A stretch of DNA of 25,598 bases from Candidatus Saccharimonadota bacterium (lineage in GTDB: Bacteria; Patescibacteriota; Saccharimonadia; Saccharimonadales; Saccharimonadaceae). The notes below the pieces were generated by a model. That model saw only the letters and a program-made list of their open reading frames with translations. It searched no databases and was not told where the DNA came from. The DNA lies in assembly GCA_002861585.1 (NCBI GenBank), contig PJQJ01000032.1:10951-36548 (forward strand). The letters are read 5' to 3'. The translations under genes were made by a program, and so were the position numbers. Within the stretch, counting starts at the first letter, position 1. Every line of letters begins with the position of its first letter. Below, in pieces: positions 15,632-21,452 of this stretch.

Positions 15632-16147
15632 ATGATTCATATACGTAAGATGCATCCAGAGGATGCGGAGCAAGTAATTCGATTAAGCAGCGCTGCCCGT
15701 ATTCAGGTCTATCAAGACTTGATCTCAGCAGATCGCCGAGCGGCATTTATGGACTCCCAATCAACTGATTTGGCGATGCTTAGTAAGAAGATCAGGCAGT
15801 TACAAAACCGATTGAATGATACCAGTAAGATGACACTCGTGGCCGAAGAGGACGGGTCTGTTATTGGCTACTGTGCGGCAACAGTTGGTGAGAATGCTGT
15901 GTATCTCAGTAATCTTTATGTTCACCCAAAACATCAGGGCAAGGGAGCGGGTAAGCTACTCTTTGCAGCCCTAAAGAAACATTACCCACATAAATCTATG
16001 CGCCTGCATGTAGTCGGTGAGAATGCTCGGGCTCTATCGCTGTATGAAAAGCTTGGTTTTAAAAAAATAGAATCTCGTCCAAGCACATATTTTGGTCTCA
16101 GTCGAATACTCATGGAAGCCAGTGCCGACATTGACTTTTCCCTGTAA
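15632..16147 (+). CDS. GNAT family N-acetyltransferase
   Basis: LSNLYVHPKHQGKGAGKLL acetyl-CoA motif A and NARALSLYEKLGF motif B. Confidence 0.9.
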   Translation: MIHIRKMHPEDAEQVIRLSSAARIQVYQDLISADRRAAFMDSQSTDLAMLSKKIRQLQNRLNDTSKMTLVAEEDGSVIGYCAATVGENAVYLSNLYVHPKHQGKGAGKLLFAALKKHYPHKSMRLHVVGENARALSLYEKLGFKKIESRPSTYFGLSRILMEASADIDFSL

Positions 16148-16159
16148 TTTTGCTATAAT
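16131..16159 (+). promoter_or_regulatory. Strong sigma70 promoter of the ATP-grasp operon (probably leaderless)
   Basis: TTGACT(16131-36)-17-TATAAT(16154-59) with extended TGn; ATG 7 nt later, no SD. Confidence 0.8.
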
Positions 16160-16166
16160 ATAAGTC

Positions 16167-17219
16167 ATGCTTTCAGCTGAATCTACAGTAGCAATTCATA
16201 CCCTGCGAAATTCAAAACCCGCAAAATTAGAACAGGTGGTCGACCATGGCCGTTTTTTACGCGATTTAGCTGATAAAAAACTATCGGTTGTTATTACAAA
16301 TCTCAATACTTTCAAGGCTGGAGAGCTTCTGCGACCAGTAGTTGATAGCGATGGTACTGTGCGGTTCACACCTGAAACCGTAGCCGTTGAAAGCCTTGCT
16401 GGTCTCGTATCTATGCATAACCGTGTTCTTGGACCGTTAACACATGAAGCGGCAACCGGTATTCCACGGGTAAACAGCAATGAGCTAAAGGAGTATGCAA
16501 ACTCAAAATCTCGGCTCAACTCTGAGATTTTAGGCGAGTATCAGGTACCGACACTCTTAATTCCGACAGATCCTGCGGAAATAGGTACTGCTATTGAGAT
16601 GCTAGGTTCAATAGAGGGATCACGTGTGATCGTAAAGAAAGACAATGGTTCAGGCGGTGGGTCAACTCAGCGGCTCGACAAGGCTGAGGCCGCTCAGTGG
16701 CTCGAACAGTTCTTTGCCGATGAGCAGCGCTCTGCCCATGTTATGCAGCCTGAAATAATTTTTGGAACATTACCTGAAACGATTCGGGGTGTGAGCGAGC
16801 AGGAAGAAGATCTAGTTCGCCGATCACGGCAAGAGGGATTGCTTACTGAGCTGCGCCTCTTCGTTGTTAAGCGGCAGAACGAGGCGGATATCATACCAAT
16901 TGGTCGCATCGTTGCCGATAAAGATGATCGAATGGGTGGTGCAAGCGATACATATGTTGATGTCACCGTTGATGATTCGCTTATGAATGAGCTTGCTCCG
17001 GTTGCCCAAGGAATTATTGATAAAACTGTTGAACGATCAAAGAGCGCACCATTTGCCGTGGGTGCAGTCGATTTTTACTTTTTACCTGATGGCGGTTTCG
17101 GTGTGATGGAGGCAAATATTAAGAGCCCACAATTACCACGTACACGAGATAATGCAGTAGCTGGTCGTGCCGTTCATAGGGCACTTGCCAAAACACTAGC
17201 GACGATGGGAGGTAGATAG
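16167..17219 (+). CDS. Divergent ATP-grasp domain protein
   Basis: NSK..L..YQVPT, VIVKKDNGSGG, VMQPEI, ELRLFVV, AVDF and MEAN (ExN) occur in ATP-grasp order; more divergent than its neighbours. Confidence 0.65.
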   Translation: MLSAESTVAIHTLRNSKPAKLEQVVDHGRFLRDLADKKLSVVITNLNTFKAGELLRPVVDSDGTVRFTPETVAVESLAGLVSMHNRVLGPLTHEAATGIPRVNSNELKEYANSKSRLNSEILGEYQVPTLLIPTDPAEIGTAIEMLGSIEGSRVIVKKDNGSGGGSTQRLDKAEAAQWLEQFFADEQRSAHVMQPEIIFGTLPETIRGVSEQEEDLVRRSRQEGLLTELRLFVVKRQNEADIIPIGRIVADKDDRMGGASDTYVDVTVDDSLMNELAPVAQGIIDKTVERSKSAPFAVGAVDFYFLPDGGFGVMEANIKSPQLPRTRDNAVAGRAVHRALAKTLATMGGR

Positions 17220-17221
17220 AT

Positions 17222-19575: not shown

Positions 19576-20478
19576 ATGAAGATTGTTATTTTATCGAAGG
19601 GTGGCGCTAACTACACCACGAAGCGCCTCAAAGAAGCTGCCAAAGCCCGCGGACATGCCGTAAGGGTTGTTAATTATAATAAGTGTTACATGACGATCGA
19701 GAAGAATAATCCGATTGTGTACTACAAAGGTGAACCACTTATTGCCGATGCTATTATTCCCCGTATCGCACAAAGCTACACCAAGTATGGCTCTTCAGTT
19801 GTGCGTCAGTTCGAAATGCAAGGTGTCTTTACGGCTGCCAGTTCGATTGCAATTGTTCGTTCTCGCGATAAGCTGCGCTCTTACCAGCTGCTTGGAAAGT
19901 ACGGCGTTGGAATTCCAAAAACAGTCTTTGCGCGTGAAGCGGCCGATTTTGAGGATGTTATCGAACGCGTTGGTGGAACACCGGTTATCATCAAAGTAGC
20001 CAAGGGAACACACGGTAACGGGGTCGTTTTAGCTGAGACTAAAAAAGCAGCCAAAGCGGTAATGCAGGCTTTTTACGTTGAAGGTGTAAACTTTTTGGTG
20101 CAGGAATTTATCAAAGAATCAGCCGGTACTGATATCCGTGCCGTCGTTGTTGGCAACAGAGTTGTTGCGAGCATTGCTCGCCAGAGCCTCGATGATGATT
20201 TTCGTTCTAACACCCATCAGGGTGGAGTTGGCAAACCTATCAAGCTAACTGAAGAAGAAGTCAAAACCGCCATCAAAGCCGCAAAAGCAATGGGGCTCCC
20301 TATCTGCGGTGTTGATATGATGCGCTCCGAGCGAGGACCGCTGGTGCTCGAGGTTAATTCATCGGCTAGCCTAAAGACTCCTGAACTCATTACAAAACGA
20401 GATGTTGCAACCAAAATTATTGAGTACATCGAGCTCAATGCAAAGCGCCGTAACAAAAAGGACCGCGTCGGAGCGTAG
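19576..20478 (+). CDS. rimK: RimK family alpha-L-glutamate ligase
   Basis: MKIVILS..YTTKRL, IPRI, RSRDKLRS, GTHGNGV, VQEFIKE..GTDIR, FRSNTHQGG, GVD and LEVNSS; full-length canonical RimK pattern. Confidence 0.92.
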   Translation: MKIVILSKGGANYTTKRLKEAAKARGHAVRVVNYNKCYMTIEKNNPIVYYKGEPLIADAIIPRIAQSYTKYGSSVVRQFEMQGVFTAASSIAIVRSRDKLRSYQLLGKYGVGIPKTVFAREAADFEDVIERVGGTPVIIKVAKGTHGNGVVLAETKKAAKAVMQAFYVEGVNFLVQEFIKESAGTDIRAVVVGNRVVASIARQSLDDDFRSNTHQGGVGKPIKLTEEEVKTAIKAAKAMGLPICGVDMMRSERGPLVLEVNSSASLKTPELITKRDVATKIIEYIELNAKRRNKKDRVGA

Positions 20479-20486
20479 GAGAGATT

Positions 20487-20942
20487 ATGGTTGATAGAGT
20501 AAAACTTGCAACCTTTGCAATCCTATTCGTTGCTGTTGTCTCGATATTAATGTTCTCGCTGTCGCTTGGTACGCCAAAACCAACAGAGAGGGCGGTTATA
20601 AATAATCGAAGTATTGCGCTAGATGTTGCAGACACTGCCGATGAGAGGGAGAAGGGGTTGTCTGGAACAGCGCAGTTGCAGAGTAACCGTGGATTGCTAT
20701 TTGTCTTTGAAGATACGGGCTACTGGTCCTTTTGGATGAAGGATATGAACTACTCGATAGATATTATTTGGTTTAACGAGTCGAGGCGGGTTATTCACCT
20801 CGAGGAGAAGGTTAGTCCTAATACCTATCCACGACAGTTTGTACCTAATACGCCAGCAAAATATGTCTTAGAAATTCCGGCTGGAAGGGCGAAAGAGTAC
20901 GATATTAAACTAGGTGATCAAGCGACATTCTACTTGCCATAA
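20487..20942 (+). CDS. DUF192 domain protein with N-terminal membrane anchor
   Basis: VADTADEREKGLS, GLLFVF, FWMKDMNYSIDIIW and YVLEIPAG motifs; AGGAGA SD. Confidence 0.9.
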   Translation: MVDRVKLATFAILFVAVVSILMFSLSLGTPKPTERAVINNRSIALDVADTADEREKGLSGTAQLQSNRGLLFVFEDTGYWSFWMKDMNYSIDIIWFNESRRVIHLEEKVSPNTYPRQFVPNTPAKYVLEIPAGRAKEYDIKLGDQATFYLP

Positions 20943-20969
20943 GCGCTTTAGTGCTATTATGGTGGCATA

Positions 20970-21452
20970 ATGTCTTCCTTTGTTATTTTAGGCGTGGGCG
21001 CTCTACTGTTTCTCTTAGCTTTTGTGACGAAGCGTCGCTTTGGAGTGCTCGGTTTGGGACTCTGCGCGGGAACGCTCCTAAGTGAATCGCTAACAGTCTA
21101 CGTTGCGACGCTCTTAACTGATAACGGCGTGGAGATGGTGTCGGTTAGTAGCACTGCCTTGGCCTCATGTATCCTGATTGTACTGCCGTCGCTCATTCTG
21201 CTCTTTAGTGGTCCTAAGTACACCAAAAGAGTGCCCGCGATAATTGGCGCACTGCTCTATACCCTTATGGCAACGCTGCTCGTTCTAGGACCCTTGAGTA
21301 GTTCGCTCGTAACTGACGCTACGTCGCGCGCTATCCTGCTTCAGGTGTCACGTTTTGAGCAGATTGCTCTGGCGGTATTTGTCGCGGTGGCGCTCATTGA
21401 TACCTTATTTTTGCATGGTCCTAAGCTAGGCAAGAAGGGCGACGAACATTGA
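20970..21452 (+). CDS. Hypothetical integral membrane protein (4-5 TM)
   Basis: 160 aa, several hydrophobic helices, fills the gap between DUF192 and the tRNA; no family recognised. Confidence 0.75.
   Translation: MSSFVILGVGALLFLLAFVTKRRFGVLGLGLCAGTLLSESLTVYVATLLTDNGVEMVSVSSTALASCILIVLPSLILLFSGPKYTKRVPAIIGALLYTLMATLLVLGPLSSSLVTDATSRAILLQVSRFEQIALAVFVAVALIDTLFLHGPKLGKKGDEH

Follow-up and report, generated by a model that had tools for sequence, protein, structure and literature searches.

The protein pair that writes and erases glutamate tails has been described in several architectures. In the RimABK/RimB-RimK system of Pseudomonas fluorescens (PMC4741518, PMC7343187, PMC11957791), RimB trims the poly-Glu tails of RpsF and stimulates the synthesis of poly-alpha-Glu by RimK (Little et al., PMC11957791). 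RimK, RimB and a RimBK hybrid have been characterised biochemically; such hybrids occur in Desulfotalea psychrophila (DP2392), Flavobacteriales and Rhodobacterales, and the protease domain of the hybrid is active on poly-Glu tails (PMC11957791). Lormand et al. 2025 (PMC12239564) reported a more distant arrangement, the rloABC operon of Pseudomonas aeruginosa, whose products are a RimB relative that is secreted, a transglutaminase-7TM protein and a protein of the ATP-grasp type. Here we analyse a 25,598-nucleotide (nt) stretch of DNA from a Candidatus Saccharimonadota bacterium (assembly GCA_002861585.1, contig PJQJ01000032.1, positions 10,951 to 36,548), referred to below as the window, in which a canonical RimK and a RimB-type protease domain are accompanied by three further ATP-grasp ligases. 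The genome (G000) is a 0.89-Mb assembly that is about 80% complete and derived from soil metagenomes; the sequencing runs listed for the stretch itself are likewise of soil-metagenome DNA, with no RNA run among them. A literature search found no paper on RimK together with Saccharibacteria.

The unit consists of six genes on the plus strand, G1 to G6 (16167-21452), which lie downstream of a single strong promoter and are separated, from G1 to G6, by 2, -8, 49, 8 and 27 nt. This layout had been proposed from the letters and open reading frames (ORFs) of the window (the sequence-only reading), as had a run of four successive ATP-grasp genes with a built-in RimB-type protease; the layout was reproduced, and the run of ligases with its protease is borne out by Pfam matches, a structure model and conserved residues. 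The graded divergence of the ligases, another part of that reading, is also seen in a tree, in which RimK has short branches, the G2/G3 type long ones and G1 the longest. We interpret the locus as an enlarged RimK/RimB write-and-erase module in which three further competent ligases would act on the acidic tail or polymer recognised by RimB, with the DUF192 protein (G5) and the membrane protein (G6) as bystanders. We put the probability of this interpretation at roughly 0.55.

The most familiar component is G4 (19576-20478, 300 amino acids [aa]). It matches PF08443 with 195.9 bits, Rimk_N with 118 bits and TIGR00768 with 245 bits (cut-off 143), and scores 319 bits against the equivalog model NF007764, just under the cut-off of 331. 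Residues 1-289 align over the full length of RimK structures, with E-values of 3e-89 for 7qyr and 5e-81 for 4iwx, and 5zct is matched as well; identity to the RimK proteins of relatives is 60-82%. Judged by these matches G4 is a canonical RimK, that is, an S6/alpha-L-glutamate ligase, and the assignment made in the sequence-only reading stands.

The expected acceptor of such a ligase has a suitable end in this organism. The S6 protein (L037, 1441-1770, minus strand) terminates in ...SKEKNEE, and a -EE C-terminus is present in 4 of the approximately 986 ORFs of a crude set, S6 among them. S6 also ends in -EE in G004, the other genome with four ligases. With respect to gene position, S6 lies on a contig separate from the cluster in the window's own genome; in G004 it is on the same contig (L110, C28 8337-8663), about 2 kb from G1. 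Across related genomes that have RimK, S6 ends in -EE in 31 of 52, in a single Glu in 6 and without a terminal Glu in 15, and a -EE end occurs in one of six genomes lacking RimK; these counts from relatives do not amount to a statistical test. In the relatives compared, no pattern linked the end of S6 to whether a genome has extra ligases. In this organism S6 can plausibly be the acceptor of G4, but it cannot account for the entire clade: the 15 S6 proteins without a terminal Glu indicate that S6 may not be the sole or universal acceptor.

The protease partner is found within G3 (18141-19526, 461 aa). The ORF list begins this gene at GTG 18072; the start at ATG 18141 is preferred, backed by about 120 homologues of 447-479 aa. 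From this start, G3 encodes an N-terminal ATP-grasp domain (18141-19085) followed by a RimB-type, retropepsin-like aspartic protease domain (19086-19526). The C-terminal 145 residues or so match PF05618 with 64.3 bits (cut-off 27) and PDB entry 9g59 with an E-value of 6e-6, and they contain a DTG motif at residues 340-342, of which D340 and G342 are invariant in 37 homologues and at least 97% conserved in 120. This is the only PF05618 match in the genome, and it lies 49 nt upstream of rimK, at the place held in most relatives by a stand-alone RimB. A complex prediction of G4 with G3 residues 305-461 gave a score of 0.00, which counts neither for nor against a contact between them.

G2 (17222-18148, 308 aa) and the first 315 or so residues of G3 form a pair of divergent RimK-superfamily ATP-grasp ligases, paralogues that are about 33% identical. 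Their PF08443 scores are 60.5 bits for G2 (cut-off 21) and 42.5 bits for G3; among the NCBIfam models, both have weak matches to MptN and LysX (55-57 bits against cut-offs of 275-350), and the sole Pfam TTL match among the proteins, that of G2, is below threshold. In an alignment of G2-type, G3-type and RimK proteins, the residues equivalent to G4 K99, K140, Q176, D247, E259 and N261 are invariant, so that the two ATP-binding lysines, the glycine loop, the hinge Gln, the Asp-x-Arg motif and the Asp/Glu-x-Asn metal ligands are all retained. Within G3 itself, each of K113, K157, Q190, D198, R200, R214, N224, D262, E276 and N278 shows either no variation or conservation of 97% or more across the 120 homologues, which span 38-100% identity. 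The substrate loop differs consistently, reading HLNNTSQGG in the G2/G3 clade versus FRSNTHQGG in RimK. G2 homologues comprise 262 clusters, and the named ones are nearly all from Saccharibacteria, with one labelled Nomurabacteria. The AlphaFold2 (AF2) model of G3 has a mean pLDDT of 91 and both domains are folded confidently; given a lower-confidence linker at about residues 300-320 and a pTM of 0.67, the two domains are probably movable relative to each other.

G1 (16167-17219, 350 aa) is the most divergent of the four. It has no match in Pfam and none in the PDB by sequence search, and its family comprises 37 clusters at E<1e-3 among 1.84 billion representatives. The evidence that it is nevertheless an ATP-grasp protein is twofold, namely a three-domain fold and ATP/Mg-binding residues. 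Its AF2 model (pLDDT 93.8, pTM 0.91) matches Ddl, ArgX/LysX, DcsG and PsnB with a Foldseek probability of 1.00 and E-values of about 1e-12, and its nearest neighbours among predicted structures are YheC/D-like proteins, with TM-scores of 0.69-0.75. The family alignment retains K157, Q194, E228, R230, D302, E315 and N317; of these, K157, Q194, D302 and N317 are invariant and E315 is at least 90% conserved. On the strength of the modelled fold and these residues, G1 is assigned to an undescribed, YheC/D-like subfamily of ATP-grasp enzymes. A loss of catalytic residues from the additional ligases would have told against the sequence-only reading; the residues are kept in G1, G2 and G3. Since the ATP- and Mg-binding residues are kept in all four proteins, the four ligases are probably enzymes and not decoys.

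G1 is rare and remains linked to the cluster. A search of 301 genomes of the class gave matches to it in 12 (about 4%) at E<=1e-8, just two of them strong. In three other loci (L038, L041/L042 and L044), it heads the same six-gene order with an identity of 22-42%, so that the arrangement G1-G2-G3(RimB)-RimK-DUF192-membrane protein, whose conservation had been in question, does recur in distant relatives. A different family of the class has its G1-like genes immediately 3' of rimK instead of 5'. The fact that linkage is kept despite this rearrangement argues for a shared function of G1 and the cluster.

The wider setting was surveyed in 61 genomes, namely this one and 60 relatives from its order. 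Of the 61, 54 have RimK and 55 have a match to G3, mostly to its RimB part; RimB is usually a stand-alone protein of about 150 aa encoded directly upstream of rimK. Thus RimB-RimK is a near-universal core in this order, and at least one extra ATP-grasp gene lies beside it in about 18 of the 60 relatives. The surroundings (hrcA-grpE-dnaK-dnaJ ... comEC-yebC) are conserved. Three further long contigs carry G2-G3(RimB)-RimK with the same 8-nt overlap and without G1. Almost every homologue with a name comes from Candidatus Saccharibacteria or Saccharimonadales. A maximum-likelihood tree, built by a quick search that raised long-branch warnings, resolves three clades with support, namely those of canonical RimK, of the G2/G3 type and of the G1 family. 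The G2/G3 clade stands apart from RimK with 96% SH-aLRT support, and canonical RimK is sister to a small clade of fusion ligases of about 760 aa (L027, L046, L053).

Ligase and RimB domains have been combined in several ways in these organisms. An extra ligase, RimB and RimK are all unfused in L019, L020 and L023. The order ligase-RimB is found in the window and in L017, L018, L038, L041 and L044, and the order RimB-ligase in L022 (5017-6348) and L024 (4590-5915); the existence of both orders indicates that RimB joined an accessory ligase more than once. The fusion proteins of about 760 aa mentioned above (L027 4528-6825, L046 2127-4412, L053 1639-3918) are built as ligase-DUF3541-like-RimB, in which the middle domain is a weak DUF3541 match of 25-27 bits, slightly under the cut-off. 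Finally, proteins of about 470 aa in L025 (5864-7282) and L026 (2272-3681) carry a C-terminal RimB behind an ATP-grasp domain of another type (Ddl/GshB-like by Pfam), for which neither BLAST nor hhalign gave any relation to G1 or G2/G3. A G1-like N-terminus that had been considered for the 472-aa RimB fusions of genomes G012 and G006 was rejected, the hhalign probability being 6%. Such repeated fusions suggest that the extra ligases are tied to RimB.

These observations can be assembled into a working scheme. By analogy with Pseudomonas, RimK would lengthen the -Glu-Glu C-terminus of S6, make free poly-alpha-glutamate, or both, and the RimB domain would cut such Glu tails back. G1, G2 and G3 would have as their substrate the acidic tail or polymer recognised by RimB, which would explain why extra ligases are so frequently fused to RimB; possible roles for them are the addition of other residues, the starting or branching of chains and the tagging of further acceptors. 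The fusion in G3 would set the ratio of writer to eraser at 1:1. Retropepsins function as dimers, and for this reason G3 should be at least dimeric.

Several points weigh against this scheme. The protease domain of G3 does not pass the RimB equivalog model NF052261 (69.7 bits versus a cut-off of 200). Both G2 and G3 fall below the RimK family model TIGR00768, with 82 and 58 bits versus 143, and their matches to RimK structures, with E-values of about 1e-5 to 1e-6, do not surpass those to Ddl or ArgX. The relatives that have RimK and an S6 without a terminal Glu (15 of 52, as above) count here too, and the D. psychrophila RimBK hybrid did not glutamylate Pseudomonas RpsF (PMC11957791). The proposed co-transcription of the six genes, lastly, is deduced from spacing and signals.

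It is tempting to go one step further. If the ligases had divided roles (starting, extending, adding other residues, making branches) and RimB served as the eraser, the module could write a variable "tail code" on S6 or other proteins, a proposal that we regard as speculative; the multi-step assembly line with distinct specificities put forward in the sequence-only reading is likewise conjectural. Were the tail code real, bacteria would have an equivalent of the tubulin TTL/TTLL-carboxypeptidase code, one that would allow ultra-small symbionts to retune translation without transcription factors.

The alternative that survives best dispenses with a protein target: the ligases and RimB might produce and recycle an acidic peptide or polymer not attached to any protein (poly-alpha-glutamate, or a chain that is mixed or branched) that serves as an osmolyte, a counter-ion or a store of glutamate and nitrogen in a biosynthetically poor cell. 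RimK does make free poly-alpha-glutamate, and is stimulated by RimB in doing so (PMC11957791). In addition, both RimK and RimB are kept in those relatives whose S6 has no C-terminal Glu, and the extra ligases evolve fast and are spread patchily, as is often the case in accessory metabolism. However, S6 does end in -EE both here and in G004, such ends are very rare in this genome, and the cluster has no linked exporter, storage or amidation gene. The nearest fold relatives of G1 (YheC/D and TTL-like proteins) are, moreover, putative modifiers of proteins. We consider a free polymer as the main product to be rather improbable, about on a par with the tail code.

Less probable still, and in our judgement unlikely, is that the extra ligases are redundant, simply glutamylating S6, or regulatory, binding RimK or RimB with no chemistry of their own. 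It is true that they share both superfamily and operon with RimK, that RimK is oligomeric and that paralogues can co-assemble. However, catalytic residues are conserved throughout (at the level of 97% or above in the 120 G3 homologues, and without change in the aligned G2-type proteins and across the G1 family), the substrate loop is consistently unlike that of RimK (HLNNTSQG versus FRSNTHQG), and the three separate clades are older than the divergence of the families of the class. It is also unlikely that three redundant genes would be retained in a genome of only about 0.9 Mb.

The last two genes of the unit bear on the remaining alternative. G5 (20487-20942, 151 aa) matches PF02643 (DUF192/UPF0127) with 96.5 bits (cut-off 27) and has a hydrophobic N-terminus that could be an anchor or a signal; a literature search found no function described for DUF192. 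G6 (20970-21452, 160 aa) is a multi-pass membrane protein with no Pfam or NCBIfam match and no transglutaminase domain, and its Atlas neighbours are all hypothetical proteins of Saccharimonadota. With gaps of 8 and 27 nt, G5 and G6 are probably co-transcribed with the ligases. The sequence-only reading had offered, as one possibility, a surface or cell-wall peptide that these two proteins would handle. The distribution of the genes speaks otherwise. DUF192 is present in 33 of the 61 genomes: 25 have it immediately 3' of rimK, 4 have it elsewhere and 4 have it without RimK (G019, G028, G051 and G059). Conversely, 25 of the 54 RimK-positive relatives lack DUF192, and three-ligase clusters often do so. 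In G019 and G028, where RimK is absent, the DUF192-G6 pair lies between dnaJ and comEC as in the window; in G029, RimB-RimK has moved past yebC and the pair remains by comEC. Because it stays in place in genomes without RimK and where RimB-RimK has moved, DUF192 and G6 are best classed as an independent pair and as bystanders to the ligases, and the adjacency of the pair to rimK would reflect conserved synteny. Consequently, and despite the close spacing, the position of DUF192 directly 3' of rimK in 25 of the 33 DUF192-bearing genomes, and the fact that some ATP-grasp ligases act on peptidoglycan precursors, the idea of a surface or cell-wall peptide that the ligases build in the cytoplasm and that an exported DUF192 and the membrane protein then handle is very improbable, being already largely refuted by this distribution and having no Mur, Fem or flippase gene linked to the cluster in its favour.

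The promoter assigned to the unit (TTGACT-17-TGcTATAAT, 16131-16159, plus strand) is of the sigma-70 type with an extended -10 box. It has 11 of 12 consensus positions plus the TG extension and ranks at the top of 11 promoter-like sites in the region, for which shuffled sequence yields a background of 8.9 sites at 9/12 or better. A TTGAC(T/A)...TGnTATAAT box is also present 6-11 nt 5' of the G1 start in L038, L041, L044, L046 and L052. The genes upstream of these five other G1 loci are unrelated and the box is kept nonetheless; this recurrence far exceeds chance, which argues that the predicted promoter is real. In the window the -10 box ends 7 nt 5' of the G1 ATG (16154-16169), and the distance is 6-11 nt in all six loci. 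Given this conserved proximity to the start codon, the G1 mRNA is probably leaderless or nearly so; Shine-Dalgarno-like motifs precede G2 to G5. Terminator-like hairpins within the unit number 5, versus 6.4 expected from shuffles.

At its 5' side the promoter overlaps the 3' end of a GNAT gene (15632-16147). This gene was considered as a member of the unit and rejected: elsewhere a GNAT gene comes before G1 only in L046, in L026 a GNAT gene is located further upstream, and the remaining loci have unrelated genes at that place. On the other side, a tRNA-Lys (UUU) gene (21495-21571, plus strand; Rfam tRNA 70 bits, and ARAGORN) has its own promoter-like site, TTGACA-18-TACCAT, at 21449-21478, and from these signals it is taken as the downstream boundary of the transcription unit.

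Other features of the window and its genome may be recorded here. An HD-domain protein (PF01966 28 bits, HD_5 weak) is encoded at 11316-12101 in the grpE-dnaK interval, 4 kb upstream. The dnaK-dnaJ interval contains a 99-aa membrane ORF (14157-14456) with a weak PQ-loop match of 24.6 bits, and a 43-aa ORF rich in Lys, Arg and Gly (21791-21922), with no Pfam match, is found within the 610-nt gap before comEC. Elsewhere the same genome has a fifth ATP-grasp gene, which is stand-alone and 268 aa long (contig C29, about 25516-26322; L115 1327-2133) and scores 38.7 bits against ATPgrasp_ST and 28.8 bits against RimK-like. In one relative, a GGDEF cyclase gene (L117 3903-4607) lies divergently beside a G2-G3-RimK cluster. 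Pseudomonas RimK is regulated by c-di-GMP, and by analogy a link between c-di-GMP and the system described here is conceivable. None of the six proteins matched a PADLOC defence-system model. A search of this genome, of which about 80% is covered by the assembly, for a MATCAP-like peptidase was negative, and so was that of the control genomes.

Saccharimonadia have genomes of 0.6-1.2 Mb and few regulators, and yet about 90% of the sampled genomes keep RimK and RimB, and some devote four or five genes to ATP-grasp ligases. The retention of so much of this machinery in small, regulator-poor genomes suggests that these episymbionts rely on post-translational tailing, whether of S6 or of something else, as a major tool of regulation or metabolism. 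In practical terms, the series of unfused, ligase-RimB, RimB-ligase and three-domain forms provides natural constructs for studying both the coupling of RimB to a ligase and the products of the G2/G3 and G1 ligase families. The locus also extends the published work on Rim and Rlo from Proteobacteria to the candidate phyla radiation.

How, then, does the locus compare with the known systems? It shares with the Rim system of P. fluorescens a canonical RimK beside a DTG retropepsin, an S6 (RpsF) with a Glu-Glu C-terminus and the logic of a writer and an eraser for alpha-glutamate tails. It differs in that the operon has no RimA (EAL) gene, RimB is fused behind a paralogous ligase instead of being free-standing, and three additional ATP-grasp ligases are present, in a Saccharimonadia genome of about 0.9 Mb. 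Like the RimBK hybrid, it has a RimB protease and a RimK-type ATP-grasp domain in one polypeptide. However, the published hybrid carries an N-terminal RimB on the RimK-like ligase itself, whereas G3 carries RimB at the C-terminus of a divergent paralogue, with a canonical RimK encoded separately downstream; the N-terminal order of the hybrid does occur in relatives of this genome (L022, L024). As in rloABC, a RimB-related retropepsin is paired with a RimK-related cytoplasmic ATP-grasp protein (RloC there), and the operon includes a membrane protein. Unlike RloA, which is secreted by means of a signal peptide, the protease domain here should be cytoplasmic, since it is fused to a ligase; and unlike RloB, which consists of an inactive transglutaminase and seven membrane helices, G6 has no transglutaminase and appears independent of the ligases.

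Two further comparisons are looser. The TTL/TTLL enzymes are likewise several ATP-grasp ligases with divided roles that act on acidic C-terminal tails and are opposed by peptidases, but there is no sequence-level membership of that family here: the likeness of G1 to YheC/D-like proteins is one of fold, and that of the locus to TTL/TTLL one of logic. LysX/ArgX-LysW and CofF/MptN use the same ATP-grasp chemistry to add an amino acid to the terminal Glu of a carrier or cofactor; in contrast, the cluster has no LysW-like carrier gene, and those pathways have no RimB partner. The sequence-only reading had known of no characterised system with this architecture. That statement is too broad, in that RimB-RimK hybrids (PMC11957791) and rloABC (PMC12239564) have been published and the core of the locus is ordinary, but it holds for the layout, which matches neither. 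Taken together, these comparisons of gene content and domain order place the locus as an undescribed variant of the known RimK/RimB system, one that lies outside the published RimBK and Rlo architectures.

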